From NCBI GenBank assembly GCA_002084955.1, contig MZGJ01000005.1:1-47514 (forward strand): DNA of 47,514 nucleotides, read 5' to 3'. The DNA is from a candidate division CPR3 bacterium 4484_211. Its GTDB lineage: Bacteria; Patescibacteriota; 4484-211. The notes under the pieces were generated by a model that searched no databases, was not told where the DNA came from, and was given only the letters and a program-made list of their open reading frames with translations. Both the position numbers and the translations under genes were made by a program. Positions 25,266 to 45,568 of this stretch are shown in pieces. Position 1 is the stretch's first letter, and each line of letters opens with the position of its first letter.

Positions 25266-25412
25266 AAAAATACCCCTCAGATGTCAGCTGTCAGCGTATT
25301 TTTATATTACCACTTCTAAACCACTCTATTTTTTTATTTCTTTACCCGCGTACCAGAAAACCGCCAGTACCAGAAACTAAAAGAACATGATAGAATACGA
25401 GAGATCTTTTTT

Positions 25413-25486
25413 TGCCGGGTCGTCTAAGGGTAGGACAGCGGGTTTTGGGCCCGTTAATCGTGGTTCGAATCCACGCCCGGCAGCCA
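25413..25486 (+). tRNA. tRNA-Gln(TTG)
   Basis: TGCCGGG acceptor stem, GCGGG-TT-TTG-GG-CCCGT, GGTTCGAATCC, G-CCA. Confidence 0.93.
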
Positions 25487-25503
25487 GCCAAGTAGGAGCA
25501 AAC

Positions 25504-26392
25504 TAAGAACTGTTCTTAAAATAGCTTAGACATAAACAAAAAGTTAGACTCCTGGTACAATTAAAAATGCCCTCACCGAACATTTTAAAAGATTACTTTT
25601 CCAATGCCTACTATCACATCTATAACAGGGGTATCAACAAACAGGACATATTTAAACATCCCGATGATTATGAAAAGTTTATCGACCACTTTAAATTGTG
25701 TCTAACCCCGGTGCAAAAGTTAATAGAAGAAAAAAATGAACTTATCGTCAAAAAGGGTCCTACCCGTAGGATAGAACAGTTAATTAATGCCATTAATAAG
25801 GGACTTAAATACAGAACAGATAAAAACATCAGCTTACTTGCCTACTGTCTAATGCCTAACCATTTTCACCTACTTGTCTTTCAAAAAACCAAAGATGCCA
25901 TTACAATATTAATGAAAAGATTGGTTACCGGATATACCGGCTATTTTAATCATAAGTACAAAAGGCGCGGCCCGCTATTCGAAAGCCGCTATAAAGCCTG
26001 CCATTTTACCATTGATCCCCGAATTCAAACCTTATTGACCTGCAGATACATAGAAAGAAATCCTCTGGCGGCAAACATAATCAACATTAACAAACTCCAT
26101 CGCTATCCTTATTCAAGTTTGCAATTTTATGGGAATAGTCGAAAAATGAAGCCAGTCAAACCAATTTGGTTAAGTACCTTAAGGCTAAAAAGAATTTTTA
26201 GTAAGATAAAGCAGAGTCCCAACGGTCCAATTGAAAATCAAATTGCCAAAAAAGAAACTTATCTGGAGTTTGTTACGGGTGATTTACTTTTTAACACAGA
26301 AGACGTCCGCTTGGTAAATATGTTTGAATAATTAATTGTACCAGATTGTAGCGCTTTACGCGCAGTAGCAAGCATTTTAAGAACAGTTCTTA
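25504..26392. mobile_element. RAYT locus bounded by inverted REP-like repeats
   Basis: TAAGAACTGTTCTTAAAAT at 25504-25522 with exact reverse complement at 26374-26392; CTGGTACAATTAA at 25552-25564 with reverse complement at 26332-26344. Confidence 0.75.
25567..26331 (+). CDS. REP-associated tyrosine transposase (Y1 HUH, IS200-like)
   Basis: YYHIYNRG..K..IF, AYCLMPNHFHLL (HUH), GPLFESRYK, RYIERNP (catalytic Tyr), YPYSS. Confidence 0.9.
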   Translation: MPSPNILKDYFSNAYYHIYNRGINKQDIFKHPDDYEKFIDHFKLCLTPVQKLIEEKNELIVKKGPTRRIEQLINAINKGLKYRTDKNISLLAYCLMPNHFHLLVFQKTKDAITILMKRLVTGYTGYFNHKYKRRGPLFESRYKACHFTIDPRIQTLLTCRYIERNPLAANIININKLHRYPYSSLQFYGNSRKMKPVKPIWLSTLRLKRIFSKIKQSPNGPIENQIAKKETYLEFVTGDLLFNTEDVRLVNMFE

Positions 26393-29346
26393 TGGGGCGC
26401 AATATATCTATCCGCGGAGCGCGGGAACACAACTTAAAAAATATTAATTTAGACATCCCCAAACAAAAACTAATCGTTTTCACCGGTATCTCCGGGAGCG
26501 GTAAGTCATCATTGGCTTTTGATACTATCTACGCCGAAGGACAAAGGAGATATGTCGAATCCTTGTCTCCCTATGCCCGCCAATTTTTGGGCATTATGGA
26601 CAAGCCGGATGTGGATCGAATTGAAGGCCTGGCTCCTTCCATCTCCATCGGACAAAAGGAAATCTCTCACAATCCTCGTTCTACCGTGGGAACAATCACC
26701 GAAACTTACGATTTCCTGCGCCTGCTCTTCGCCAGAATTGGCCACCCTCACTGCCCTCAGTGCAGCCAGGAAATCCAAACCCAAACTCCTCAGCAGATTG
26801 TTGACCAGATTACCTCTTTAATAAAGCGCGAACTTGGCAAAACCGTGAATAAAAAACGCGGGGTGCGGATAATTATCCTTTCCCCATTAGTCAAGGATCG
26901 TAAAGGAGAATACAGCGCCCTACTGGGGGAACTTCTCAGAAAAGGCTTTACCCATGCTCGGATTGACCGCCAAGTCCGCCGGCTTGACGAGGATTTGGTT
27001 TTAATCCGAACTAACCGCCACACCATCGAAGCTGTAGTAGACCGACTGGTAATAAAAAAAAGCCTAGATCAGGAACTAAAAAGAAGATTAACCGATTCCG
27101 TGGAAAAAGCCCTAAAATTAAGCAACGGCACTCTCATTGTCTCCTTGGTTAACGACTCTTCTTTTGATTTTCCCCAAAGCCCCCAAGATATGAAAGATCA
27201 CCTTTTTTCTGAACTCTTTGCCTGCCCTAAATGCAATATCAGCCTTCCCCAACTAGAGCCGCGCACCTTTTCGTTTAATTCACCTCACGGCGCGTGTCCA
27301 CTTTGCGGAGGGTTAGGCATACAACTTAAAATAGACCCGACCAAAGTTTACAATCCTAATTTAACCATCAACGAAGGCGGAATTTATCCCTGGTCATCTA
27401 TCGGCGACAGCAATAGCTGGATAGGCCGGCTGTTGGAAGCTCTATCCCAAACTTACCATTTCTCACTGGATATGCCAATCAAGGAATTGCCAGAAAAAAT
27501 CTTGGAAATCATTTTATTTGGCGCCGGAGACAAAACTTTCACAGTTAAAGCCTACAGCCGCTCGGGAAGTGTCCGAGAATACCGCACCAAATTTGAGGGC
27601 GTGGTCAACAATCTTGAACGCCGCTACCGCGAAACTAATTCCGATCAAATCCGCCGTTGGATTGAAAAATTTATGAAGCAAACAATATGTCCCAAATGCC
27701 AAGGGACGCGCCTTAAACCCGCTGCTCTGTCTGTAACCATAAAGGGCAAAAATATTGCCGAGATTTCTGCTTTGTCAATTAACGAATTTAAAAACTGGAT
27801 CGACGAACTTAAGGAAATAGAAGCAGTCCCTCGGGAGAGGTCTCCCCTAACTGAACGGGAAAGACAAATTGCCAGACCGATTATAAAAGAACTAACCAGC
27901 CGAGTAAGATTTTTAACCGATGTCGGTTTAGGCTATTTGACTCTCAACCGAACCGGATTTACCCTCTCTACCGGCGAAGCCCAGCGAATTAGACTAGCCT
28001 CACAGATCGGATCTGGGCTTTCCGGAGTTTTATATGTTTTGGACGAGCCCTCTATTGGTCTTCACTACCGTGACCACAAACGTCTGCTTGATACTTTAAC
28101 CAATTTAAGAGATTTAGATAACACGGTGATCGTGGTGGAACATGACCCGCAGACTATTCGCCGCGCCGACTGGATTGCGGATTTTGGCCCCCTGGCCGGA
28201 GAAAAAGGAGGTGAAATTGTCGCCTGTGGCACTCTAGACGATATTATCAATTCTCCCAGGTCTATTACCGGCCAGTATTTAAGCGGCAAAAAAACAGTAA
28301 AAATTATCAAAAAAACCACCGAAAGTCTCCCGAGCGCCGAAAAGCCCCAGCCAGTTATTAAACTCATCGGCTGCTGTCAGCACAACCTAAATAACATAGA
28401 TGTGGTTTTCCCTCTGGGCAAGTTCGTCTGCGTTACCGGAGTCTCCGGAAGCGGCAAGTCTACTCTGGTTATGGACACTTTGTACAAAAGACTAGCCCGA
28501 GAATTTTACCAAACCCAAGAAGTCCCAGGCAAACACCGCGCGATACAAGGGCTGGAACACATTAACAGAGTAATTAATATTGACCAATCACCCATCGGCC
28601 GCACCCCTCGTTCTAACCCGGCCACCTACACCGGCGCTTTCACTCCTATTCGGGAGCTCTTTGCCCAAACACCTGAGGCTCGGGCGCGCGGTTATCTAAA
28701 AGGAAGATTCTCGTTTAATGTTAAGGGAGGCAGGTGCGAAAATTGCCAAGGAGACGGACTAATAAAAATTGAAATGCAGTTTTTATCAGATGTCTATGTG
28801 GAATGTGAAGTCTGCAGGGGATTAAGATATAACCGAGAAACTTTGGAAATAAAATATAAAAACAAAAATATCGCCGAAGTTTTGGAGATGAGCGTAGACA
28901 GCGCCCTAGATTTCTTTAAAAATATCCCCTCCATAAAGCAGAAATTGAACACCCTCTCGCAAGTGGGCCTAGGGTATATTAAACTCGGGCAACCGGCGCC
29001 GACTCTATCCGGCGGCGAAGCACAACGGGTAAAACTTGCCAAAGAATTATCCAAAACCTCACGTGGACACACAGTTTATATTCTGGATGAACCAACTACC
29101 GGACTTCACTCCTATGATATTGAAAGATTGCTTCGGGTTCTGCATCAATTAGTAGACCAGGGAAACACAATTATCGTCATTGAGCACAATATGGATATAA
29201 TTAAAACTGCCGACTGGATTATAGATCTAGGCCCGGAAGGCGGTAATATGGGCGGCCGCATTGTCGCCCAAGGCTGCAAAGAAGAAATTATGAAATGCAA
29301 AAAATCATATACCGGGAAATATCTTAAAGAATATCTAGGTATCTAA
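26392..29346 (+). CDS. uvrA: Excinuclease ABC subunit A
   Basis: GAREHNLKN, two Walker A motifs (G.SGSGKS), zinc fingers, LSGGEAQR, GRTPRSNPATY. Confidence 0.98.
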   Translation: MGRNISIRGAREHNLKNINLDIPKQKLIVFTGISGSGKSSLAFDTIYAEGQRRYVESLSPYARQFLGIMDKPDVDRIEGLAPSISIGQKEISHNPRSTVGTITETYDFLRLLFARIGHPHCPQCSQEIQTQTPQQIVDQITSLIKRELGKTVNKKRGVRIIILSPLVKDRKGEYSALLGELLRKGFTHARIDRQVRRLDEDLVLIRTNRHTIEAVVDRLVIKKSLDQELKRRLTDSVEKALKLSNGTLIVSLVNDSSFDFPQSPQDMKDHLFSELFACPKCNISLPQLEPRTFSFNSPHGACPLCGGLGIQLKIDPTKVYNPNLTINEGGIYPWSSIGDSNSWIGRLLEALSQTYHFSLDMPIKELPEKILEIILFGAGDKTFTVKAYSRSGSVREYRTKFEGVVNNLERRYRETNSDQIRRWIEKFMKQTICPKCQGTRLKPAALSVTIKGKNIAEISALSINEFKNWIDELKEIEAVPRERSPLTERERQIARPIIKELTSRVRFLTDVGLGYLTLNRTGFTLSTGEAQRIRLASQIGSGLSGVLYVLDEPSIGLHYRDHKRLLDTLTNLRDLDNTVIVVEHDPQTIRRADWIADFGPLAGEKGGEIVACGTLDDIINSPRSITGQYLSGKKTVKIIKKTTESLPSAEKPQPVIKLIGCCQHNLNNIDVVFPLGKFVCVTGVSGSGKSTLVMDTLYKRLAREFYQTQEVPGKHRAIQGLEHINRVINIDQSPIGRTPRSNPATYTGAFTPIRELFAQTPEARARGYLKGRFSFNVKGGRCENCQGDGLIKIEMQFLSDVYVECEVCRGLRYNRETLEIKYKNKNIAEVLEMSVDSALDFFKNIPSIKQKLNTLSQVGLGYIKLGQPAPTLSGGEAQRVKLAKELSKTSRGHTVYILDEPTTGLHSYDIERLLRVLHQLVDQGNTIIVIEHNMDIIKTADWIIDLGPEGGNMGGRIVAQGCKEEIMKCKKSYTGKYLKEYLGI

Positions 29347-31502: not shown

Positions 31503-32843
31503 ATGGAGTTTCCTCAAAATGTCCCAACAACTCCCGGCATCTATATTTTCCGCGGCGTAAAAAAGAGACCTTTATACATCGGCAAGGCGAAGAATTTAAA
31601 GAACCGAATCAGATCCTATTTTCAAACTAAAGTAGGGCCAAAAATAAGGCAAATGCTGGCCAAAGCCAAGGATATAAAATTTGTTGCCACCGATACCGAG
31701 CTGGAGGCTGTCCTGCTGGAGGCAGATCTCATAAAGAGGCTTAATCCAAAATATAACACGCAGTGGAAGGACGATAAAAACTTCAAATACATTGCATTAG
31801 ATTTTCCCCGAGTTTATACAACACGCAAAAAGTCAGTTCCTCACGCTGTTTATTTTGGACCTTTCCCTGATGGTAAAATCGTCAGTCAGGTTTTAAAAAC
31901 TCTGCGTAAAATTTTCCCTTTCCGCGACTGCACTAGAACAAAATTCAATCGTCACCAAAAAATTAAACGCCCCTGTTTGTACTACAATCTAAATCTTTGT
32001 CCGGGTCCGTGCATTGGCGCCGTCTCGGCTCAAAAATACACAGAAAATATTAACCGACTGATACTTTTTCTAAAAGGCAAAAAGAAAAAAATTATCCGGG
32101 ACCTAAAAGCAAAAATGAAGTCAGCCAGTGCCAACAAAAATTTTGAAGCCGCCGCCAAATACCGGGACCAAATAGAACGGCTTAACTATGTGCTTTTGCA
32201 ATTTCGTTATCAAGAAAATTACCTTAAAACGGCAGATCTGCTGGTTGATCAAAAAGCCAGAGAACTAGAAGAGCTCGACAAAGTCCTCACGGGGGTTCTC
32301 CCCCGCAGAGGAAGAACCTCTAACTATCATAGGTTCCGTTTGGAAGCCTATGACATTTCCAACCTGCAGGGGCAACAGGCAACAGGCTCAATGGCAGTGC
32401 TGGAAGGAGGAACGCCCAAAAAATCCGACTACCGCAAGTTTAAAATCCGCGCCGCCGGAAAAGTAGATGATGTGGGCATGATTAAAGAAGTTTTAAAAAG
32501 AAGGTTTTCCAACTTTAAGAAGCGTCCTAAAGAACATAGCAAAAAACACCGCCTCGATCTCTCCTTTAGTCAAGCTCCCCACCTTATCCTCATTGACGGG
32601 GGCAAACCGCAGTTAAACGCCGCTCTCCAGGTTCTTTCTCAACTTAAAATTAATCTTCCGGCAATTAGTCTCGCCAAAAAAGAGGAAATCGTCTATTGCC
32701 AAATTAAAGGTAAATTAGAGGAAATTAAACTGCCTAAAGATTCTGCCGCTCTGCACCTCCTACAGCGCGCCAGAGACGAAGCCCATCGATTTGCCCTCAC
32801 CTACCATCACAAACTTCGGTCCCGTTCACTGACCCACTTATAG
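31503..32843 (+). CDS. uvrC: Excinuclease ABC subunit C (short form without C-terminal HhH)
   Basis: GIY-YIG domain, UVR domain FEAAAKYRD, RNaseH-like YDISN, DGGKPQL, RDEAHRFA; ends right after. Confidence 0.92.
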   Translation: MEFPQNVPTTPGIYIFRGVKKRPLYIGKAKNLKNRIRSYFQTKVGPKIRQMLAKAKDIKFVATDTELEAVLLEADLIKRLNPKYNTQWKDDKNFKYIALDFPRVYTTRKKSVPHAVYFGPFPDGKIVSQVLKTLRKIFPFRDCTRTKFNRHQKIKRPCLYYNLNLCPGPCIGAVSAQKYTENINRLILFLKGKKKKIIRDLKAKMKSASANKNFEAAAKYRDQIERLNYVLLQFRYQENYLKTADLLVDQKARELEELDKVLTGVLPRRGRTSNYHRFRLEAYDISNLQGQQATGSMAVLEGGTPKKSDYRKFKIRAAGKVDDVGMIKEVLKRRFSNFKKRPKEHSKKHRLDLSFSQAPHLILIDGGKPQLNAALQVLSQLKINLPAISLAKKEEIVYCQIKGKLEEIKLPKDSAALHLLQRARDEAHRFALTYHHKLRSRSLTHL

Positions 32844-32873
32844 CCGCTCACCAAAACTCACCTCCACTCATGC

Positions 32874-34136
32874 CTAAAATGACCTCATAAACCCTTCCCG
32901 GGCTTTCATGGGGAAAGAAAGAGTAAAAGTACAGCCTTGCCCAGAATCGCTTGCTAAATCTACTGTACCCCCATTAAGGCCAACAAATCTCTTAACAATA
33001 TAAAGCCCCAAGCCCGTCCCTTTACTCATCTCAGCCGCCTTAGACTTTCCCCGATAAAAGGGCTTAAAAATTTTGCCCTGCTCTTTCTTAGCAATGCCCG
33101 GCCCGGTATCACGCACACTTATCAAAAAATTATTGTCCTCACACCAGCATCTCAATAGAACCTCTCCCTTTTGGGTATATTTCACGGCATTGTCCAGCAA
33201 GTTGGCCAAAATATTTTTAAACGTGCGCACATCAACCAACACCCAGACACTCATTTTTAGATCATCTTGGAATTCAAAATCCAGCCCCTTACCTAAGGCT
33301 GCCGGTTTCAAAGAGTTGAAAACCTCTTTGATTAGGGGGAGGGGATTAACCCACCGGCGCGAGATTTCTGTTTTTTTCGCCTGAATTTTAGAAACCTCTA
33401 ATAATTCATTAACCAACTTCTCCAAATTTGCCAAAACATCTTTCATCTGATCCAAAAATTTTCGACGCTCCTCAGACTCAAGATCTTCCTCTCCCAAGGC
33501 CTCCCAATATCCCTTTAAAGCCGTCAACGGGGTTCTAAAATTATGCACAGCCACCGAAATGTACTCATTTCTCAACTTAGCCGCTTCCTTCAAAGCATCA
33601 ACCTTTTTGGCCAAGACTTCCTTAGCTTTAATTTCTTTCTGCAAAATTTCACCCCAGTAACCGGATACCAAACAAACACTTAGCAAAGAAGCTGTTCTTA
33701 AAAGAAGCGCCGATTGTGTCAGTTCACCACTGGCCAAGACAAAATAAAAAAAGGAAACCAGAGAACCACTCATAAACCCAACCCATAAACCGCCGCGGAA
33801 AGGAATAACAATTAAGCTAACCAAACCCAGAAGATAAAAATCGGAGGCAAACAGGCGGAAGATAATTAAAACAGCCGCAAAGGTGAGAGCGTCAATTAAA
33901 ACCAGGGCGGTATATATGGCGGTAACCAAATTTGTCTTTCCTCGTTGATTAAAGTAGGACGAAAGCAGTTCTCCGCTAATTGATAAACAAAGCAGAAAAA
34001 TAAAGATTAAAAGTAGGTAAACGGGATATTGATAAAAAAGAATAGCAAAAAGCCCAATTAATTTTAGACCGATAAGAATATTGGTGGTGAGATGAGGAAT
34101 AGTTGGTGTCTGGTGCGTGTCTGAGTTAGTCATCAA
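32874..34136 (-). CDS. Membrane sensor histidine kinase
   Basis: Several TMs; H-box HNFRTPLT; N-box NLLDNAVKY; DTGPGI; GTGLGL. Confidence 0.93.
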   Translation of the reverse strand: MMTNSDTHQTPTIPHLTTNILIGLKLIGLFAILFYQYPVYLLLIFIFLLCLSISGELLSSYFNQRGKTNLVTAIYTALVLIDALTFAAVLIIFRLFASDFYLLGLVSLIVIPFRGGLWVGFMSGSLVSFFYFVLASGELTQSALLLRTASLLSVCLVSGYWGEILQKEIKAKEVLAKKVDALKEAAKLRNEYISVAVHNFRTPLTALKGYWEALGEEDLESEERRKFLDQMKDVLANLEKLVNELLEVSKIQAKKTEISRRWVNPLPLIKEVFNSLKPAALGKGLDFEFQDDLKMSVWVLVDVRTFKNILANLLDNAVKYTQKGEVLLRCWCEDNNFLISVRDTGPGIAKKEQGKIFKPFYRGKSKAAEMSKGTGLGLYIVKRFVGLNGGTVDLASDSGQGCTFTLSFPMKAREGFMRSF

Positions 34137-34166
34137 TTATCAGTTTTTTCAAACTTTTGCAAAACT

Positions 34167-34898
34167 CTAATCATTTAGAGAAAAAATTTGTGAAAAAACA
34201 ATCCCGCAAAACATAGTCAGCGCCCCAAAAAGGGTCAGATAATCCAAGACAGCTCCCCACTCAATAAAAAGGCGGAAGTGGGCAACCAAAATTGGGCCAA
34301 CATAAAACGCCATCCCCAAGCCAATAAAGAAACCTCTAAATTTGAGAACCAACGAGGATGAGCGGGCTGCCAGCAGAAAGAAGGCCAAAATATCAACCAA
34401 ACTCACCAGACCCACAAAAACCACCAAAGCCGCAGCTACCTGGGGCAACATATTCCAAAGAATTAAGCCTTTATTGGAAAGAGTAGGGTGAGGCAGGTAA
34501 ACCGCGACCAAAAAAAGAACAAAATACCCCCAAATTAGAACTATTTTTAAAAGGATATCTTCAAAAGCCGGATAAATAGCAGAAAACAGCAGCCGGCAGA
34601 GACTGTACCCGCCTAAAAATGCACTAAGAAGCGCCAGAAAATAAAACAATCCGGAAGCCGGCAGGACAAGATTTTGATTAATCTCTAAACTAATATTAAT
34701 TACCAAGCCGGCCGTTGCCCAAAAAGAGCTGGCCAAAGCCAAACCGGCAAAATAAAGTGCAAACAGACGCACCGAAGAACCTTTCTTGCGATAGGCAGAA
34801 CTAGCCAAGAAGACGCTGGCCAGCAAGAAAAGGGCACTGTCTATTAGGTGGACAACAGTGGTCAGGCTAATCATAATACTTACCAGACTATCACCCAA
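34167..34898 (-). CDS. Polytopic (about 7 TM) membrane protein, possible kinase sensor partner
   Basis: About seven hydrophobic segments; directly upstream of and co-oriented with the kinase. The start may be ATG 34874. Confidence 0.7.
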   Translation of the reverse strand: MGDSLVSIMISLTTVVHLIDSALFLLASVFLASSAYRKKGSSVRLFALYFAGLALASSFWATAGLVINISLEINQNLVLPASGLFYFLALLSAFLGGYSLCRLLFSAIYPAFEDILLKIVLIWGYFVLFLVAVYLPHPTLSNKGLILWNMLPQVAAALVVFVGLVSLVDILAFFLLAARSSSLVLKFRGFFIGLGMAFYVGPILVAHFRLFIEWGAVLDYLTLFGALTMFCGIVFSQIFSLND

Positions 34899-34970
34899 GA
34901 ATTATTTTGTCTACCCATTTACTGAAGATGCAATCTATAAACACCAAATCCCAAATACCAAATTGACAAT

Positions 34971-36197
34971 TTATCTGTCTAAAAGCTGTCTTGCCTTTCT
35001 AATACCCTCTATTAATCGGTCTATTTCCTTTTTGGTGTTATAAAAGCAAAAACTAGCTCGGGCTGAGGCCGGAATGCCCAATTTCTGGTGCAGGGGCATG
35101 GCACAGTGATGCCCGGAACGAATAGCAATTCCTTGTTCGTCCAAGATAGTGGCCAAATCGTGAGGGTGGATACCAGCGAGACTAAAGGAAATTAAAGCCC
35201 CCCTATCTACAGAATTCTCAGGTCCGATAATTTTTAAACCATCAAGTCGGGTCAATTTCTGGAGGGCGTAGCTGGTCAATTCCTCTTCGTATTTATAAAT
35301 TCTCTCCAAACCAACAAAATCAAGATAATCAATTGCCGCTCCCAGACCAACTGCTCCGGCAATATTAGGCGTTCCCGCTTCAAATTTTTCCGGACACCTA
35401 TTGGGGGTAAACCGCTGCCAATAAACCTCATCAATCATCCCCCCGCCTCCCAAAAAAGGCATCATTTTCTCCAGATGCTCTCTTTTAGCCCACAAGACCC
35501 CAATGCCGGTCGGCCCCAGCATTTTGTGGCCGCTAAAAGCCAAAAAATCTGCCCGATATTTTTTAACATTAAAACCCAAATGGCCCACCGATTGAGCCGC
35601 ATCCACCAGAACTAAAACACCTTTCTCATGCGCCCTTTTTATAATCTGCCCAAGGGGGTTAATAGTACCCAAAACATTAGAAACATGGGTTAAAGACAAC
35701 AGACTGGGATGAGCGTCAAGTAGCCCCCAAAGATGATTTAAATCCAAATACCCTTGACTATCAATTCGGGCATATTTAATATTCAGATGCTTTTCCTGCG
35801 ACAGAATTAACCAGGGGATAATGTTAGCGTGATGCTCCATCTCTGTCAACACCACCGCATCACCATCTTTAAAAAATCTCTTTCCCCAACTAAAGGCAAC
35901 CAAGTTTATGGCCTCGGTTGTATTTCGCACAAAAATAATTTCACGCGCATCGTCGGCACCAATAAATTGCGCCGTCTTCTTTCTCGCTTTTTCATAGGCA
36001 AGGGTGGCCTCCTCAGACAAGGAGTGAATTCCCCGATGGATATTGGCATTGCATTTCTGATAAAAACGAGAAACTGAGCGAATAACAGATCTGGGTTTTT
36101 GGGTAGTAGCCGCATTATCTAAATAGGCTAATGGCCGGCCACGAACCTCCCGTGAGAGGATAGGAAAATCCTTGCGAAATTTCTGAACATCAAACAT
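34971..36197 (-). CDS. sufS: Cysteine desulfurase, SufS family
   Basis: YLDNAATTQKP, EHHAN, SGHKM (PLP Lys), EAGTPN, RSGHHCAMP. Confidence 0.95.
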   Translation of the reverse strand: MFDVQKFRKDFPILSREVRGRPLAYLDNAATTQKPRSVIRSVSRFYQKCNANIHRGIHSLSEEATLAYEKARKKTAQFIGADDAREIIFVRNTTEAINLVAFSWGKRFFKDGDAVVLTEMEHHANIIPWLILSQEKHLNIKYARIDSQGYLDLNHLWGLLDAHPSLLSLTHVSNVLGTINPLGQIIKRAHEKGVLVLVDAAQSVGHLGFNVKKYRADFLAFSGHKMLGPTGIGVLWAKREHLEKMMPFLGGGGMIDEVYWQRFTPNRCPEKFEAGTPNIAGAVGLGAAIDYLDFVGLERIYKYEEELTSYALQKLTRLDGLKIIGPENSVDRGALISFSLAGIHPHDLATILDEQGIAIRSGHHCAMPLHQKLGIPASARASFCFYNTKKEIDRLIEGIRKARQLLDR

Positions 36198-36215
36198 GGG
36201 TAAAATGCCAAACTA

Positions 36216-36446
36216 CTATTTAGGCCACAACTTCTCTCCTGACTCTTTGTCCACCGCCTCAATTGCTTCTACCGGGCATGACTGCGCCGCGGTAAGCTTT
36301 TCTTCATCCGTATTGCCCTCCTGATTAACCACCGAAGATTTACCATCCGTTCCAATTTGGAAAGTCTCCGAGGCTAAATTTACACAGGTCCCGCAACCAA
36401 TACAGGTCTCTTTGTTTACCTTTACCTCTATTTTTGAATCTGACAT
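36216..36446 (-). CDS. Single-cluster ferredoxin
   Basis: CIGCGTC...CP motif; GGGGGTG RBS before ATG 36446. Confidence 0.9.
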   Translation of the reverse strand: MSDSKIEVKVNKETCIGCGTCVNLASETFQIGTDGKSSVVNQEGNTDEEKLTAAQSCPVEAIEAVDKESGEKLWPK

Positions 36447-36462
36447 TAACTCTTCACCCCCT

Positions 36463-36816
36463 TTAGACAACCGCCTTTTTAAGTACCGTCAACGGCAGCT
36501 GAACGCATTTCCTACGACCCGGGCTAATTTTGCCCGCCAATTGCCTTAATAGATTATCATCAAGTCTTTTAATCTTTTCAAGTGCCATTCCCTTCACTTT
36601 CTCGGTCAACATACTGCAAACACCTATACAGAGAGCGCATCCTTCCCCCTGAAAACGGATCTCTTTCACCTTTCCATTTTCTACATTAAGCTGAATTTTA
36701 ATCTGGTCCCCGCAGGAAGCATCAGAACCCTCGGCCGAATGCGTGAAATTTTTTAATCTACCAAAATTAAGAGGGTTTTTATAATGATCAATAATCTTTT
36801 GGCTAATAGTTGTCAT
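36463..36816 (-). CDS. SufU/IscU (NifU-N) Fe-S scaffold or sulfur acceptor
   Basis: DHYKNP.NFG, CGD, GEGCA, RRKC. Confidence 0.88.
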   Translation of the reverse strand: MTTISQKIIDHYKNPLNFGRLKNFTHSAEGSDASCGDQIKIQLNVENGKVKEIRFQGEGCALCIGVCSMLTEKVKGMALEKIKRLDDNLLRQLAGKISPGRRKCVQLPLTVLKKAVV

Positions 36817-36877
36817 AACAATCCTTATTTTATCCGATATTACCTCTTGCCGCAATTAGATTTTCCGTTTACTATAA

Positions 36878-37072
36878 TTCCACAACACCCTCTTTCTTGC
36901 CATTGTTCGCAATGCCAGCATGGAAGATGCCGCCGAGGTTATGCAAAAGCTGGGAGCCGCCAATGCTCTAAATCTTGACGGAGGAGGATCCTCGGCTATG
37001 TATTATAATGGATCTTATAAAGTAGGACCGGGAAGAAATTTACCCAATGCGGTTGTGTTGCAAAAAAGATAA
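36878..37072 (+). pseudogene. C-terminal fragment of a phosphodiester glycosidase (NAGPA/DUF2233) gene
   Basis: Hand translation, absent from the ORF track: NTLFLAIVRNASMEDAAEVMQKLGAANALNLDGGGSSAMYYNGSYKVGPGRNLPNAVVLQKR*. In-frame TAA at 36875. Confidence 0.8.
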
Positions 37073-37135
37073 AAAGCAGACCAAACTCGATAAGTCTAGA
37101 ACCCCAAGCCTGTCGGGTTTCGCCTAATTTGATAT

Positions 37136-37987
37136 ATGAACACCCACCAATATCTTATTCTTGCCCTTGACCACCGGCAAAGCCTAAAAAAATTACTCGC
37201 GCCGCATAAGCCTGGTTCCATCACTGCCGCAGAATTAATAAGATGGAAGACAATTGCTTTGCAGTACCTCCTGCCATATGTGACCCACGTATTAATTGAC
37301 CCGGAATTCGGTCTGCCCGCCTTACAAAAGATAGAGAGAAAAAACACTAAAGTTATTTTAAGTATTGAAGAATCAGGATACCAGAAAATTGACGGTGAGC
37401 GACTTACCCGCCTTAAGTACACGGTAGAAGATCATAAAAAACTAGGCGCCGACATAATTAAACTTCTCATTTACTTTAACCCTCGGGCTAAAACTGCCAA
37501 ACACCAAAAAGATCTAGTCCAAAAAATTTCCAAAGACTGCCAAAAGCACAACTTGCCATTTTTGTTGGAAGTAGCCCCCTATGGTTTGGAGCCTTCTTCG
37601 GGGGACGCCCCTCGAAGAGGAGCGACTCCCTACTCAGTCCTAGAAATAGCCAAAGAAATTATGTCCTTGGGCTGTAAAATTGACATCTACAAAACCGCCT
37701 ACCCCGGCGATAAAAACTGTAATCGGCTGACCAAAACTTTAAAAATCCCCTGGGTCCTATTGTCCGGCGGGGAGGAATTCCCAATTTACAGGAAAAACCT
37801 GCAGACAGCAATGCGGGGCGGCGCGGCTGGTTTTGCCGCCGGAAGAACTTTATGGAAAGACTTTATTCGTCGGCCTAGAGAAAAATGGCCGGAGTTCTTT
37901 AAAAAAGTGGCCAAAACAAGGCTGGAGGAAATTATCGGGATCGTAAAGAAAAATGCGCAGGACACAACTTCCCTAACTACTGCCTGA
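37136..37987 (+). CDS. Class I aldolase, tagatose-1,6-bisphosphate aldolase (LacD)-like
   Basis: LALDHRQSL, L.DPEFGLP, E.SGY, K.L.YFNP, PFLLE, PWVLLSGG, GF.AGR.LWKD. Confidence 0.85.
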   Translation: MNTHQYLILALDHRQSLKKLLAPHKPGSITAAELIRWKTIALQYLLPYVTHVLIDPEFGLPALQKIERKNTKVILSIEESGYQKIDGERLTRLKYTVEDHKKLGADIIKLLIYFNPRAKTAKHQKDLVQKISKDCQKHNLPFLLEVAPYGLEPSSGDAPRRGATPYSVLEIAKEIMSLGCKIDIYKTAYPGDKNCNRLTKTLKIPWVLLSGGEEFPIYRKNLQTAMRGGAAGFAAGRTLWKDFIRRPREKWPEFFKKVAKTRLEEIIGIVKKNAQDTTSLTTA

Positions 37988-38050
37988 GTATTCAATTCCC
38001 GCGGCCACTCCACCAAAGAACTAAGAACGAGACATAAACGCCCAATATAA

Positions 38051-38085
38051 ATGGGGTGATGCCCTCTTTGAGGGTAACACTCCAT
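38051..38085. repeat. Degenerate copy of the GGTGACACCCT palindrome
   Basis: ATGGGGTGATGCCCTC-TTT-GAGGGTAACACTCCAT; 13/16 Watson-Crick pairs plus two G-T. Confidence 0.7.
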
Positions 38086-38110
38086 TCAACCAACTATTGC
38101 GCGCATAGAT

Positions 38111-38146
38111 CGCAGACTAACCGCAGTACCACTCGGTACACGGTAA
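38111..38146 (-). repeat. CCGTGTACCGA...ACTGCGGTTAGTCTGCG module
   Basis: Reverse complement aligns with 45681-45714 and more loosely with 29415-29450. Confidence 0.7.
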
Positions 38147-38148
38147 AA

Positions 38149-39069
38149 TTACGTCCCGACCACATACTTCCGCAGCAAACAGCAGGGATGCAGATATTTT
38201 TTAAATTTGCGTAAACCCGCTGACCCCAGGTCCTGTTCAAAGTTGATAAATTCCAATTTACTTCTAAACTCTTGAGCTAAAGACCAAAAAAAGAACTCAC
38301 CCAACCCTTTAATCCCGCGAGCCGTCTTAAAATGATGAATCAGCAGTGTCTTTTTAGGTATTTCCTCTAATAGGGCAAAGGCTTTAAGCTGCCTATCAAT
38401 TGCTATTCCAAACATCGTCAAGTTCAATTGATCCCAAAACAGAAACGCCTTTTCTAAACCATCAGCTTCTCGCTGCAGACTCAATATGCTTTCTTTTTCC
38501 AAATTGACCTTACTCCTCCTCCATTCCTCCTGCAGCCGCCAGCAATCATCAAAGTTTGTCTTAGACAATTTCATAAATTTTGGAGAATATAAGCGCTGAC
38601 ATAAATTTCTCTTCCTCCTCAAATTCGCAAAATCAGCGCCTAGCAGGTCAGCCTGGTGAGCAATTTTATAGAGATAATCGCAATTGTCTCTATTCAGCTT
38701 AACCCGAAACCGCTCCGGGGACTCAAGAGCCTTAATAGCTAACTCTGGTACAAAAGTTAAGTAATTTATTTTTAGGCTGGTTCCGGCATACTCAAGAAGG
38801 GCATTCAATGACTGGTCCATACAGTTCTTCCCCAAAATGCTAAGAAGGGTCTCACCGCTAACCGAATCATCAAAAACCACCACCAGATTTTCATTTAAAT
38901 TTGAAATTTTAAGAGAATTATTGTTGTCCAGGGTAAAAAGGCTCGTAAAAACAAAGTCAGAATAGTTGCTGTTTAAATAGTTGTTAAAGCCACTGATGGT
39001 TGATTGGCAAGTAAGACCAAAAGGTTCAAACTGTGGAAAGTGAGGAATTTTTAGCCTGCTTTCGCGCAC
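38149..39069 (-). CDS. DUF2156 / phosphatidylglycerol lysyltransferase-like GNAT-fold protein
   Basis: DYLY....L.G, C-terminal INFEQDLG..GLR.FK..L.P motif. Confidence 0.8.
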   Translation of the reverse strand: MRESRLKIPHFPQFEPFGLTCQSTISGFNNYLNSNYSDFVFTSLFTLDNNNSLKISNLNENLVVVFDDSVSGETLLSILGKNCMDQSLNALLEYAGTSLKINYLTFVPELAIKALESPERFRVKLNRDNCDYLYKIAHQADLLGADFANLRRKRNLCQRLYSPKFMKLSKTNFDDCWRLQEEWRRSKVNLEKESILSLQREADGLEKAFLFWDQLNLTMFGIAIDRQLKAFALLEEIPKKTLLIHHFKTARGIKGLGEFFFWSLAQEFRSKLEFINFEQDLGSAGLRKFKKYLHPCCLLRKYVVGT

Positions 39070-39094
39070 ACGCCAATTCTAGCATAAATAGGTA

Positions 39095-39131
39095 AATAGG
39101 GTGACACCCTTTTTGAGGGTGTCACCCTATT
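39095..39131. repeat. REP-like hairpin AATAGGGTGACACCCT-TTTTG-AGGGTGTCACCCTATT
   Basis: 16-bp perfect stem; near-identical copy at 41050-41076. Confidence 0.9.
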
Positions 39132-39172
39132 ATTCCCTGTCAGCCAGCCGTCTCTACCCTTGGCATTACCGC

Positions 39173-39205
39173 CAGTATGATAAACTAGCTTATCATACCG
39201 GACCT
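39173..39205. repeat. Third, degenerate copy of the ATGATAGACTAGTCTATCAT palindrome
   Basis: CAGTATGATAAACTAGCTTATCATACCGGACCT versus the reverse complement of 29717-29750. Confidence 0.8.
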
Positions 39206-39335
39206 GCTAAGCCCGTAACCGCTTATTTACCACAGAATCAAATACGCTCCGGCAATGAGTTAGAATTTAAGGCAAGCAGAAATTCTAGAACTCAAGGAGG
39301 ATTATAAAGACAAAGGAACCCATTTAGAAAGAAAA

Positions 39336-40934
39336 ATGCCCATCACAACCCAATTACTCAAACAAATACTTACACAAAAAGCCAGCTCAAAAGAGGATTT
39401 GAGAAAAATTAAGCGGAAATTTTCCCGGGAGCATAAAATCCCTTTAATAAAAAACTCCGACCTGCTGGCCGAGTACTGGAGACAAGTGAATCGGGGGAGT
39501 ATAAAAAGAGATTACTTCCTTGAGGACCTTTTGCAGTTAAAAAGTACCCGTACCCTTTCCGGAGTCTCTCCGGTAGCCATTTTTACTAAACCTTACCCCT
39601 GTCCTGGGAAATGCATCTATTGTCCCACAAAAAGCAATGTTCCCAAAAGCTACCTGCCAAATGAGCCGGCGGTCATGAGAGCGGAGCTTAATCAATATGA
39701 CCCAATTCTGCAGATCAAAAACCGCCTGCAGCAATATAAAAATATCGGTCATCCCACTGACAAAATCGACCTAATTATTAAAGGCGGCACCTGGTCCGCC
39801 TACCCGGTCAGCTATCGAAAATACTTTATTAAACAGTGCTACGCGGCTTGCAACAACAAGCTTCAGCCCGCACAGGAGCATACCAGCCTATTTAAAATTC
39901 AAAAAATTAACGAAACAGCCCAACACCGCCTTATCGGCATTAACATAGAAACTCGACCCGATCTAATAAATGAAGAGGAAATCAAAAGGCTAAGAAATTT
40001 TGGCGTGACGCGGGTAGAACTCGGAGTCCAAACCCTTGATGACAAAATCTTAAAACTGGTTAGGCGTGGACACGGGGTAAAAGATACGATTCGGGCAACC
40101 AGACTCCTAAAAGAAGCTGGTTTTAAAGTTGGATACCACATGATGCCCGGACTTCCCGGCAGTAATCCCCAAAAAGACGTGGAGATGTTTAAACAATTAT
40201 TTACTGATCCCCGTTTTCAACCTGACATGCTAAAAATCTACCCCTGCGTAATTACCAAAAACACCCAGCTTTATACCTGGTACAAGCAAGGAAAATACAC
40301 CCCCTATAACGACCGGGAGTTAATTGAACTCTTAATTGAAATAAAAAAGATCCTTCCGCCCTATGTACGTGTAGACCGGATTGGACGGGACATACCGGCA
40401 CCGGATATTATGGCCGGGTCTAAAATTTCCAATATCAGGCAGGTCGTCCAGAAAAGGATGAAAGAGCAAGAATTATCCTGTCAATGCATCCGTTGCCGTG
40501 AAATAAGAGAACATTCCAAGAAAATAATCTCACCGACATTAAAGAAAATTACCTATCCTGCCTCCGGCGGAAGGGAATATTTCCTTTCGTTTGTGTCAAC
40601 CGTGCCCTCATCAAGAGGCAAAGTCCTAACAAGAAATTTGCTGGCACTGCTTAGATTAAGGTTTACCACAGACAATAAAGCGATTATCCGTGAACTGCAC
40701 ACTTATGGAGTCTCAATTAAAATAGGGATCACCCCTCGTAGAGGCACAACCTTCAAGAAGGGGGTACAGCATCGAGGATTAGGCAAGAAACTCCTAGAAG
40801 CAGCCGAAAACATTGTCAACAAAAAGGGGGTTAACAAAATCGCTGTTATCTCCGGAGTGGGAGTCAGGGAATATTATCGAAAACTGGGATATAAACTAGA
40901 AGGGACATATATGGTAAAGAAACTGGGTGATTGA
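39336..40934 (+). CDS. elp3: Elp3-type tRNA U34 carboxymethyltransferase (radical SAM + GNAT)
   Basis: RTLSGV.PVA, CPGKCIYCP, PKSY, ETRPD, ELGVQ, IRCRE, RELH.YG, QHRGLG, ISGVGVREYYRKLGY. Confidence 0.93.
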   Translation: MPITTQLLKQILTQKASSKEDLRKIKRKFSREHKIPLIKNSDLLAEYWRQVNRGSIKRDYFLEDLLQLKSTRTLSGVSPVAIFTKPYPCPGKCIYCPTKSNVPKSYLPNEPAVMRAELNQYDPILQIKNRLQQYKNIGHPTDKIDLIIKGGTWSAYPVSYRKYFIKQCYAACNNKLQPAQEHTSLFKIQKINETAQHRLIGINIETRPDLINEEEIKRLRNFGVTRVELGVQTLDDKILKLVRRGHGVKDTIRATRLLKEAGFKVGYHMMPGLPGSNPQKDVEMFKQLFTDPRFQPDMLKIYPCVITKNTQLYTWYKQGKYTPYNDRELIELLIEIKKILPPYVRVDRIGRDIPAPDIMAGSKISNIRQVVQKRMKEQELSCQCIRCREIREHSKKIISPTLKKITYPASGGREYFLSFVSTVPSSRGKVLTRNLLALLRLRFTTDNKAIIRELHTYGVSIKIGITPRRGTTFKKGVQHRGLGKKLLEAAENIVNKKGVNKIAVISGVGVREYYRKLGYKLEGTYMVKKLGD

Positions 40935-40974: not shown

Positions 40975-41049
40975 ATAAAGAAAGGAAATTGGAATTAAGT
41001 AGGCAGAAAAGAGATATTCAGGCTGAATAGGGAATAAGGTAGGGAATAA

Positions 41050-41076
41050 GGTGACACCCTTTTTAAGGGTGTCACC
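41050..41076. repeat. REP-like hairpin GGTGACACCCTT-TTT-AAGGGTGTCACC
   Basis: 12-bp perfect stem; same family as 39095-39131. Confidence 0.9.
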
Positions 41077-41195
41077 CCTTTTATCCCTTCTATTACAATA
41101 AAATTTGACGTCCTTAATCTTAATTCACAGAAAGGAGAAAGAAGGGTTAGATAGTGGGCACACCTCTCTGGGGCACGACCTTTAAAATAAGTACC

Positions 41196-45418: not shown

Positions 45419-45568
45419 GTATTTTTTTGAACGCTGAGTAACCCAATAACCAATCAACTTATTAACTTAACGGGGGCTAATTCGTCAAATATCAAATTAA
45501 AAATGCCAAACCAAATCCAAATGACAAATTTCAAACAAGGGCCAAATTACAATTTTTACAATCCTAAC

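Follow-up and report, generated by a model that had tools for sequence, protein, structure and literature searches.

Probable in-frame relics of a REP-like hairpin element in three neighbouring genes of a CPR bacterium

A peptide and a palindrome common to three neighbouring genes

The window analysed here, the whole stretch of positions 1–47,514 of contig MZGJ01000005.1, belongs to the 826-kb genome of an uncultured CPR/Patescibacteria bacterium. It contains three neighbouring genes encoding UvrC, an aldolase and Elp3, each agreeing in family with a Pfam search of its product, together with a transposase gene and dispersed repeats of two families, termed REP1 and FamB. The features considered are as follows.

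25567..26331, + strand: RAYT-like Y1 (HUH) transposase gene, 254 aa, adjoining a tRNA-like stretch
31503..32843, + strand: uvrC, 446 aa, with GIY-YIG, UVR and RNase H-like endonuclease domains
32292..32320, + strand: in-frame hairpin-like segment of uvrC, encoding GVLPRRGRT in the linker directly N-terminal of the endonuclease domain
37136..37987, + strand: DeoC/LacD-family (DUF2090) aldolase gene, 283 aa
37593..37638 (core 37600–37630), + strand: in-frame REP-like hairpin copy in the aldolase gene, encoding GDAPRRGATP
38054..38082, no strand assigned: degenerate REP1 copy in the stretch separating the aldolase gene from a reverse-strand gene
39099..39127, no strand assigned: REP1 copy, 1 mismatch to the consensus
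39336..40934, + strand: elp3, 532 aa, a radical SAM plus GNAT tRNA-modification enzyme
40712..40751, + strand: partial in-frame copy of the FamB hairpin module in elp3 (left flank, 5′ arm and tip), encoding (K)IGITPRRGTT
41049..41077, no strand assigned: REP1 copy, 3 mismatches
45474..45505, + strand: partial FamB right-hand module, hairpin excluded (nhmmer E=0.0034, profile positions 41–72)

Within 8.5 kb, UvrC, the aldolase and Elp3 each encode a peptide of the form GxxPRRGxT in frame on a CCYC-N3-GAGG palindrome. A preliminary description of this DNA had given the sequences, coordinates and frames of the three peptides correctly (offsets 789, 465 and 1389, all multiples of 3); GDAPRRGAT starts at 37601 in a variable loop of the aldolase barrel, and GITPRRGTT at 40725 in the acetyl-CoA blocking loop of Elp3. 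Across all six-frame open stretches of at least 100 aa in the genome, the pattern G..PRRG.T is found three times, each time in one of these proteins. The underlying tip (CCYC, a 3-base loop and (G/A)AGG) is present at all three sites and is common to the 33 rows of our REP1/FamB alignment. The reported 10 of 13 paired positions of the UvrC stem were recovered as Watson-Crick pairs in a 13-3-13 layout, in which the aldolase stem likewise forms 10 of 13 (the 11 of 14 reported earlier agrees with a count by hand) and the Elp3 site 6 of 13.

Sharing of the peptide is by itself not very rare: a pattern of six or fewer fixed positions in nine, present in three genes within 10 kb, arose in one of six shuffled proteomes. 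The DNA palindromes are rare. Given the peptide alone, the probability of at least 10 of 13 pairs is 0.002–0.005 per site; furthermore, when the 36 coding sites with the tip motif were ranked by further pairs, UvrC (7/9) and the aldolase (6/9) fell directly below two true REP1 copies, and none of the remaining sites exceeded 5/9. As background, 13 of 687 coding GC-rich 4-3-4 mini-hairpins reach 6/9 further pairs (1.9% per site), and 101 GC-rich hairpins with 9/11 pairs lie in coding DNA of the genome. In a genome-wide motif scan against shuffled sequence, as proposed in the preliminary description, the extended pattern given there matches these three loci only; elsewhere in coding DNA the motif counts agree with the shuffles, and CCYC-N3-GAGG shows no enrichment in coding DNA genome-wide (44 occurrences vs 30–35 ± 7–8 in shuffles).

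Repeat families of the genome and their relation to the coding sites

REP1 is present in 30 copies, three of them in the window, and the intergenic hairpins noticed earlier near 38051, 39095 and 41050 all proved to be real copies of this family. Within 3 mismatches there are 26 copies in the host genome and none in 40 relatives scanned. A near-perfect copy lies in frame within a 3587-aa ORF of the host, and another makes up the C-terminal tail of a 471-aa ORF. For FamB, copies number at least 16 (16 full ones in the seed alignment), and its 28 nhmmer matches at E<0.03 comprise 27 intergenic ones and one in a spurious ORF on contig C16, with 0 of 28 in real genes. REP1 and FamB can be aligned in register, and the alignment shows covariation in a stem common to both, with 79.5% of cells paired compared to 66.6 ± 1.4 in shuffles (0 of 500 shuffles as high) and 7 pairs changed on both sides. 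The dispersed REP-like hairpin of ~30 bp that had been postulated exists, as REP1 (30 copies) and as the FamB hairpin module (at least 16). RAYT-mobilised GTAG REPs are reported to carry a conserved GTAG (or CGTC) tetranucleotide at one hairpin end (Di Nocera et al. 2013; Nunvar/Bertels); inspection by eye of the sequences flanking all 30 REP1 copies, and of the 33 REP1/FamB alignment rows, showed no such tag.

Three RAYT-like Y1_Tnp genes in the genome exceed the Pfam cut-off; their products measure 238–255 aa, and each translation contains a visible H-F-H motif. Scores against NF047646 (REP-associated tyrosine transposase) were 34.9, 62.3 and 37.4 bits, all under the curated cut-off of 80. 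The gene in the window (Pfam Y1_Tnp 34.1 bits, above cut-off; NCBIfam REP_Tyr_transpos 34.9 bits, below) has flanking inverted repeats of its own, unlike REP1 and FamB. A second, at C12:14644-15360, is flanked by REP1 copies in inverted orientation (14612 and 15334), on a 30-kb contig that holds 6 of the 30 REP1 copies; the two Y1 genes other than this one have their own inverted-repeat flanks. Of the earlier suggestion that a RAYT spread the element, the genes are thus present and one is flanked by REP1, while mobilisation by them is our inference.

To relate the coding sites to these families, a covariance model (R1) was built from 17 REP1 and 16 FamB modules with the three coding sites left out; its E-values are rough, having been obtained with a shortened calibration. 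The aldolase site matches R1 over the full 45 positions and both arms (22.1 bits, E=3.4e-4), the best match in the window below the three REP1 copies, with all stem pairs formed around a 1-base bulge. Its minimum-energy fold is a long hairpin (−18.7 kcal/mol, z=−2.8), and the site is a homologue of the genome's repeat families.

The Elp3 site is a homologue of FamB. It shares an exact match of 19 identical bases with one FamB copy (G000:C29:68882), of which a part may be ancestral coding sequence because the K-I-G preceding the insert is also found in some orthologues. Its Smith-Waterman score of 41 against FamB is the highest among real coding sites, since only 9 windows among the 72,562 coding ones attain it (7 from a spurious ORF that overlies a true copy, and 2 that are the Elp3 site itself), and its nhmmer match to FamB (40712-40743, E=0.1 genome-wide) is the best in any real gene. 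No stem is formed here (6 of 13 pairs, with a fold z of −1.0), nor did the covariance model match the site at E<=10.

For the UvrC site (32284-32328, 10.7 bits, E=2.2 by covariance model), no family model was significant; by Smith-Waterman score it ranks in the top 2% against FamB and the top 10% against REP1, and its minimum-energy fold consists of two small hairpins instead of a long stem. Its membership of the repeat family is suggestive only, the stem complementarity being what points to it. A profile of REP1 alone, searched at E<=1000, missed the UvrC and Elp3 sites and matched only the tip of the aldolase site (E=33).

Weaker candidates named in the preliminary description found no support. 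The loop around UvrA 27820 is variable in length, with the same length in one sister genus (G002), and folds no better than expected (z=0.05); the segment at Elp3 40600 (fold z=−2.2) has no covariance-model match, nor does the intergenic segment at 41156 at E<=10.

Longer loops and parallel insertions in sister genera

Comparison with same-family orthologues, among them those of two sister genera (G001 and G002) and a further relative (G003), revealed longer loops at all three sites. The insertions had been expected to measure ~10 aa, and the net gain is smaller, at 4–7 aa. In UvrC the loop exceeds those of G001 and G002 by 6 aa, in the aldolase it exceeds those of G001–G003 by 4–5 aa, and in Elp3 it is 6–8 columns longer than in 15 of 15 orthologues, at 19 aa compared to 11–15 aa in 107 of 119 homologues. 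Placement of these indels is uncertain, since the nearest orthologues are merely 42–63% identical and UvrC loop length varies within the order, where the loops of two genomes differ from that of the query by no more than one residue. A gain of 4–7 aa, set against ~10 aa for a whole hairpin, implies either that residues were replaced or that bases were later lost.

Parallel, fresh in-frame insertions occur in UvrC and Elp3 of the sister genera. In G002 the genus's own REP occurs 14 times, including a perfect in-frame copy in UvrC (35/35 specified bases, peptide IGIIPKIGMIPI) and an in-frame copy with 1 mismatch in Elp3 (peptide IGIIPKTGMIPI); three others lie in genes for a GT4 glycosyltransferase, a GT2 glycosyltransferase and a PheT-like protein. 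Elp3 of G001 holds an in-frame model match of 34.9 bits (peptide IGFNPKTGFNPK).

Origin of the coding copies

We consider it likely that the three sites are old, in-frame REP-like insertions. The idea of an in-frame REP-like element in protein loops, already put forward in the preliminary description, is supported by two sites tied to repeat families, three longer loops and the parallels in sister genera. The GxxPRRGxT peptides would be translated relics of a small hairpin element in which a G-rich base (ATAGGG-like) leads through ~5 variable stem bases to CCYC at the tip, followed by three loop bases and the complementary arm. This element probably belongs to a superfamily whose dispersed members are REP1 and, within the longer FamB repeat, its hairpin module. 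Insertion may have been carried out by RAYT-like Y1 transposases acting on single-stranded hairpins. Copies that landed in coding DNA, or were copied into it, would survive only where the reading frame was kept and the loop tolerated extra residues, as is presumably true of the UvrC pre-endonuclease linker, of a variable loop in the aldolase barrel and of Elp3's acetyl-CoA blocking loop. Thereafter the copies would evolve as parts of their genes, with the tip (P-R-R-G) and base (G...T) kept while the stems drift, leaving in the present state an aldolase copy that folds, a UvrC copy that partly folds and an apparently decayed Elp3 copy without its 3′ arm. On this reading the insertions would be old, and they may have been neutral for the proteins.

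Some of the evidence would also suit templated patches made without a transposase, either through quasi-palindrome mutagenesis, in which a stalled fork switches template locally, or by short microhomology-primed copying from nearby repeats; a relationship of the sequence to the repeats would then be expected as well. Gains of 4–7 aa correspond better to a single arm with its loop than to an entire hairpin; the Elp3 match begins in the K-I-G codons seen in some orthologues, so that microhomology is possible; and REP1 copies lie 325–450 bases from the aldolase and Elp3 sites, with all three sites clustered as described. Such an origin is nonetheless unlikely, in that the sister genera hold complete, perfect in-frame REPs, as whole-element insertion predicts (35/35 in UvrC of G002), and the aldolase site fits R1 at full length with both arms.

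Quite unlikely, in our judgement, is chance, by which three fast-evolving surface loops would have come to hold a similar Gly/Pro/Arg-rich nonapeptide with codons (CCN/GGN, CGN) that are palindromic by nature. The clustered triple pattern of the shuffled proteomes, the 101 coding hairpins, a motif defined after the fact and the non-significant family score of UvrC speak for this reading, but neither the aldolase E-value nor the 19 identical bases at Elp3 depend on the peptide, and for these two sites chance is already strained. Stem complementarity beyond the tip at two of three sites, against the 1.9% background, also opposes it, as do the longer loops at all three and the perfect copies in G001 and G002, which represent the same phenomenon.

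Selection on the peptide, a basic flexible loop acquired or converged upon as useful (e.g., for nucleic-acid contacts in UvrC and Elp3, which bind DNA and tRNA), is highly improbable: the six shared residues do agree at all first and second codon positions and differ at the third in four of six, but this pattern was defined from the matches themselves, such a loop has no obvious use in an aldolase, the DNA-level stems of two copies would be unexplained, and in the relatives the peptides encoded by in-frame copies are hydrophobic and quite unlike this one (IGIIPKIGMIPI).

Insertion of a REP-like element would place the three sites beside Rickettsia palindromic elements, with which they would share the character of selfish palindromic DNA lying in frame in housekeeping genes and adding surface peptide segments. 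The RPE-1 elements that Ogata et al. are said to have described in 2000 reportedly span ~100–150 bp and encode 30–50 aa, whereas the units here measure ~29–35 bases with a gain of 4–7 aa, in another lineage and with another sequence. Rickettsia palindromic elements are mentioned by Di Nocera, De Gregorio and Rocco (2013; PMC3733652), who report REPs inside genes, many of them in genes for DNA repair, Uvr among them, or in genes related to tRNA, so that intragenic REPs, including those in Uvr genes, are already published and the present sites would be a further case of a known event. The two sets have in common short, normally intergenic palindromes found in frame in gene loops or linkers, single units of ~10 aa, hosts that include Uvr excision-repair genes and tRNA-related enzymes, and tyrosine (Y1) transposase genes flanked by repeats in the same genome. 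The C12 Y1/HUH gene between inverted REP1 copies resembles the REP/RAYT units (REPtrons) that they describe, and the two further Y1 genes resemble their TIR-flanked Y1 transposases (TIRYT). Unlike the GTAG/CGTC REPs of that account, REP1 and FamB modules showed no tag at their ends in the copies listed, the host is a CPR bacterium of 0.83 Mb, and the three coding copies are apparently old and diverged, visible only through a structure-aware model or a second family. Unlike NCBIfam NF047646 members, the three predicted Y1 proteins score 35–62 bits against the cut-off of 80.

The parallel insertions raise the rather doubtful possibility that REP-like hairpins end up recurrently in UvrC and Elp3 in this CPR family. 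On this view, in-frame copies would have been acquired independently in three genera with separate repeat variants, at five different loops of the two proteins, which is more than random insertion followed by filtering predicts. Such an excess would stem from insertion directed preferentially at these genes or from an advantage of lengthening particular loops, of which the tRNA-gated acetyl-CoA blocking loop of Elp3 would be an example.

The three coding segments and their shared peptide

Three peptides of the form GxxPRRGxT, found in three proteins of the window, most likely derive from old copies of a REP-like hairpin superfamily that lie in frame in the genes. The genome that carries them (G000; 826 kb, 39 contigs, 44% GC, the window being its complete contig C37) is that of a Patescibacteria/CPR bacterium, judging from its relatives and from database names. 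The peptides lie exactly where the preliminary description had placed them, each in frame, and Pfam confirmed the family assignments of their UvrC, DeoC/LacD aldolase and Elp3 hosts.

Peptides and coding segments in the window (forward-strand coordinates)
GVLPRRGRT, in frame in UvrC, ORF 31503-32843, segment 32292..32320
GDAPRRGAT, in frame in a DeoC/LacD-DUF2090 aldolase, ORF 37136-37987, segment 37593..37638
GITPRRGTT, in frame in Elp3, ORF 39336-40934, segment 40712..40751

Across six-frame open stretches of at least 100 aa in the genome, G..PRRG.T occurs three times, always at these sites, and PRRG occurs five times among the 729 ORF calls. The codons CCY-CGN-AGA-GGN are used at all three sites, so that each contains the DNA palindrome CCYC-N3-GAGG; GC content at the sites falls within the top 4-5% of 27-base windows in their own genes, a measure that is not independent of the peptide codons. 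Taken alone, the sharing of a peptide by three genes is only mildly unusual. When clustered patterns were defined by six fixed residues, a span of at most 9 and three genes within 10 kb, six shuffled proteomes yielded one, and those of the real proteome were, among the matches listed, almost entirely tandem paralogues, PT repeats and P-loops; C37 supplies two among the matches listed, of which the GxxPRRGxT peptide is one. A second clustered pattern, I..LSPL.K, is common to three genes of the window (starts 22098, 26392 and 29837), UvrA among them.

The unusual feature is the DNA stems rather than the shared peptide. Ten of 13 positions form Watson-Crick pairs in the UvrC site and likewise in the aldolase site (probability given the peptide alone, 0.002-0.005 per site), and among 36 coding sites with the tip motif these two (7/9 and 6/9 further pairs, respectively) come next after two true repeat copies, with all remaining sites at 5/9 or fewer and an empirical background of 13/687. 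The Elp3 site has 6/13 pairs and no stem. A comparison with codon-shuffled sequence, proposed in the preliminary description, merely repeats how its DNA pattern was picked, since that pattern matches only these three loci in the coding DNA of the genome; with shorter motifs the comparison revealed no coding enrichment (CCYC-N3-GAGG, 44 versus 30-35, sd 7-8; CCYCGNAGAGG in coding DNA, 4 versus 2.4 in codon shuffles).

Two repeat families and their relation to the coding segments

Scanning the genome for the tip motif revealed REP1, a hairpin repeat with a 13-bp stem and a 3-base loop, present in 30 nearly all intergenic copies over many contigs of the genome; 26 copies were found at three or fewer mismatches, and none in 40 relatives. 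The intergenic hairpins previously likened to the coding sites proved to be REP1 copies.

REP1 copies in the window
38054, intergenic hairpin
39099, intergenic hairpin
41049, intergenic hairpin

Beside the last of these, at 41028, 12 bases are missing in one contig of run X2, a difference that may reflect variation in length between populations, associated with the repeat.

When used as queries in a fuzzy search, the three coding 27-mers matched only one another and one intergenic hairpin, through which a second repeat, FamB, was found. This repeat exceeds 300 bases and is conserved among its full copies, of which there are at least 16; it centres on a hairpin module whose base and tip are as in REP1 and whose stem is different. 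FamB returned 28 nhmmer matches at E<0.03, none in real genes, and five copies searched against Rfam matched no family at E<=1. Its loci include C38:9760-10100, C21, C29, C16, C19 and others (L081-L085), with partial and mosaic copies elsewhere, and the repeat may be a MITE, a regulatory sequence or a stretch that lies upstream of paralogous genes. The FamB module can be aligned gap-free with REP1 in a single register, with covarying stems (79.5% of cells paired versus 66.6+-1.4 in shuffles, seven pairs changing on both sides). Of the six possible reading frames, canonical REP1 leaves only two open; the one FamB copy checked leaves five open, among them the one in which the three peptides are read.

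We scored the coding segments with R1, a covariance model of 17 REP1 and 16 FamB modules from which all three were left out, and whose E-values are rough, coming from a shortened calibration. The aldolase site (37593-37638) matched over the full length of the model (22.1 bits, E=3.4e-4 in the window with filters off), as the best match in the window after the three REP1 copies, with its stem paired through a one-base bulge; of the three sites, it alone takes the long hairpin as its minimum-energy fold. The Elp3 site gave no structural match to R1. No other sequence in a real gene resembles FamB as closely (nhmmer E=0.1 genome-wide). The site has 19 bases identical to the FamB copy at C29:68882 and a local-alignment score of 41; among 72,562 coding windows, 9 reach this score, namely two at the Elp3 site itself and seven in a spurious ORF that overlies a true copy. 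For the UvrC site, an R1 E-value of 2.2, a place in the top 2% by alignment and a best fold of two small hairpins are no more than suggestive of repeat membership. An nhmmer profile of REP1 alone missed the UvrC and Elp3 sites at E<=1000 and recovered the aldolase tip at E=33. Tests independent of the peptide tie the aldolase and Elp3 sites to the repeat families, and the earlier proposal of a REP-like element in coding genes is supported by the R1 match of the one and the 19-base identity of the other, a repeat copy in UvrC being only plausible.

The weaker candidates put forward alongside these sites fared less well: at UvrA 27820-27848 the loop is variable yet equally long in the sister genus G002 and carries no fold signal, and the intergenic stretch 41156-41183 has no match to R1. 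The candidate at Elp3 40600-40627 shares its loop with a repeat copy of the other sister genus, G001, and its own scores are not significant.

Loop lengths and in-frame copies in related genomes

Beyond one 99% twin of the aldolase, in which the same peptide is present, the protein collections searched held no close relatives (next-best aldolase 57% identical, C-terminal part of Elp3 54-56%). Against the same-family genomes compared (G001-G003), the UvrC loop is 6 residues and the aldolase loop 4-5 residues longer. That of Elp3 is 6-8 columns longer, as holds against all 15 of 15 orthologues covering the region, and its stretch from H.YG to QH.G.G measures 19 aa, where 107 of 119 homologues have 11-15 aa. 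In UvrC, loop length is variable across the order, and two genomes differ from the query by no more than one residue. An insertion of about 10 aa had been predicted at each site; all three loops are indeed longer, and the net gain is 4-7 aa. As a whole hairpin encodes about 10 aa, residues would have been replaced or later lost; the same shortfall may instead reflect the main rival explanation, by which only part of an element was copied into the genes. Alignments to solved chains indicate where the inserts lie. The Elp3 insert aligns to residues 390-406 of D. mccartyi Elp3, the acetyl-CoA blocking loop, for which GSGSG was substituted in a crystallised variant (PMC6367351); the UvrC insert falls immediately before the RNase H-like domain, and the aldolase alignments break at the insert loop. 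In three Elp3 homologues from other metagenomes (P0118, P0138 and P0147) the blocking loops are long and follow the pattern QSLEVRPP...GGRTS..SP; judged by sequence, these could be palindrome-derived inserts at the same loop. Contigs of four public runs hold near-identical DNA with no indel reported at the three sites, a comparison uninformative on polymorphism because cover by the three runs other than the likely source is thin.

Run as a control on the relatives' loci, R1 found matches inside the relatives' own genes.

Intragenic repeat copies in sister genera
G002 UvrC, R1 26.9 bits, peptide IGIIPKIGMIPI
G002 Elp3, R1 27.6 bits, peptide IGIIPKTGMIPI
G001 Elp3, R1 34.9 bits, peptide IGFNPKTGFNPK, in the loop of the weaker Elp3 candidate
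G002 GT4, GT2 and PheT-like genes, further copies, loci L122 (C34) and L124 (C27)

G002 has a REP of its own (35 bases, 14 copies; not found in G000, G001 or G003), of which five of 14 copies lie inside real genes, namely those for UvrC, Elp3, GT4 and GT2 glycosyltransferases and a PheT-like protein. Fresh and unmistakable copies in the two sister genera thus do what is inferred for the worn copies of G000. The clearest in-frame REP of G000 itself is a near-perfect REP1 (2 mismatches) at C23:23802-23830, which reads RVTPSLGVSP in a Pro/Thr-rich linker of a 3587-aa ORF; at C12:2480-2508 a REP1 variant encodes the C-terminal residues GCHPQKGCHP of a 471-aa ORF, 16 bases before the stop codon (2464-2466), in the same reading frame as the three peptides.

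Precedent and putative transposases

In themselves the three sites are an ordinary event. Di Nocera et al. 2013 (PMC3733652) have already described REPs inside genes, prominent hosts being Uvr and tRNA-related genes. That UvrC and Elp3 recur as hosts in three genera is of modest extra interest; it parallels the published, as yet unexplained REP excess in repair and tRNA genes, which could be tested in this lineage as a second setting. Among the best literature matches of a limited search, no report of RAYT-type elements for Patescibacteria was found. Streamlined CPR genomes (~0.8 Mb) still harbour REP-like elements, some apparently active and others fossil, alongside RAYT-like genes. ORF calls cover about 86% of the DNA, and a large share of repeat copies ends up intragenic, as the G002 fraction illustrates. 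Worn copies that sequence profiles can miss may be recovered by a structure-aware model, which is of practical use in annotating odd loops in uncultured bacteria.

Three Y1_Tnp genes of G000 exceed the Pfam cut-off, and their proteins score 35-62 bits, below the NCBIfam REP-transposase cut-off of 80. REP1 copies flank the gene on C12, a 30-kb contig with six of the 30 copies; those at window 25567-26331 and on C29 have their own, different flanking inverted repeats. By analogy with RAYTs (REP-associated tyrosine transposases), we infer that such RAYT-like enzymes may have mobilised the repeats. Within window 25400-26480 the RAYT-like gene stands beside a tRNA-like stretch. A 13-base inverted repeat directly abuts the gene at either end, and a further small palindrome lies to each side; neither is related to REP1 or FamB. 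Between the aldolase and Elp3 genes lies a reverse-strand gene with an LPG_synthase_C domain (38149-39069), with a REP1 copy on either side (38054-39127). A homologue sought in the 1.3-kb spacer that separates aldolase and Elp3 in G001 yielded only a 101-aa ORF there, and in G002 and G003 the two genes are adjacent.
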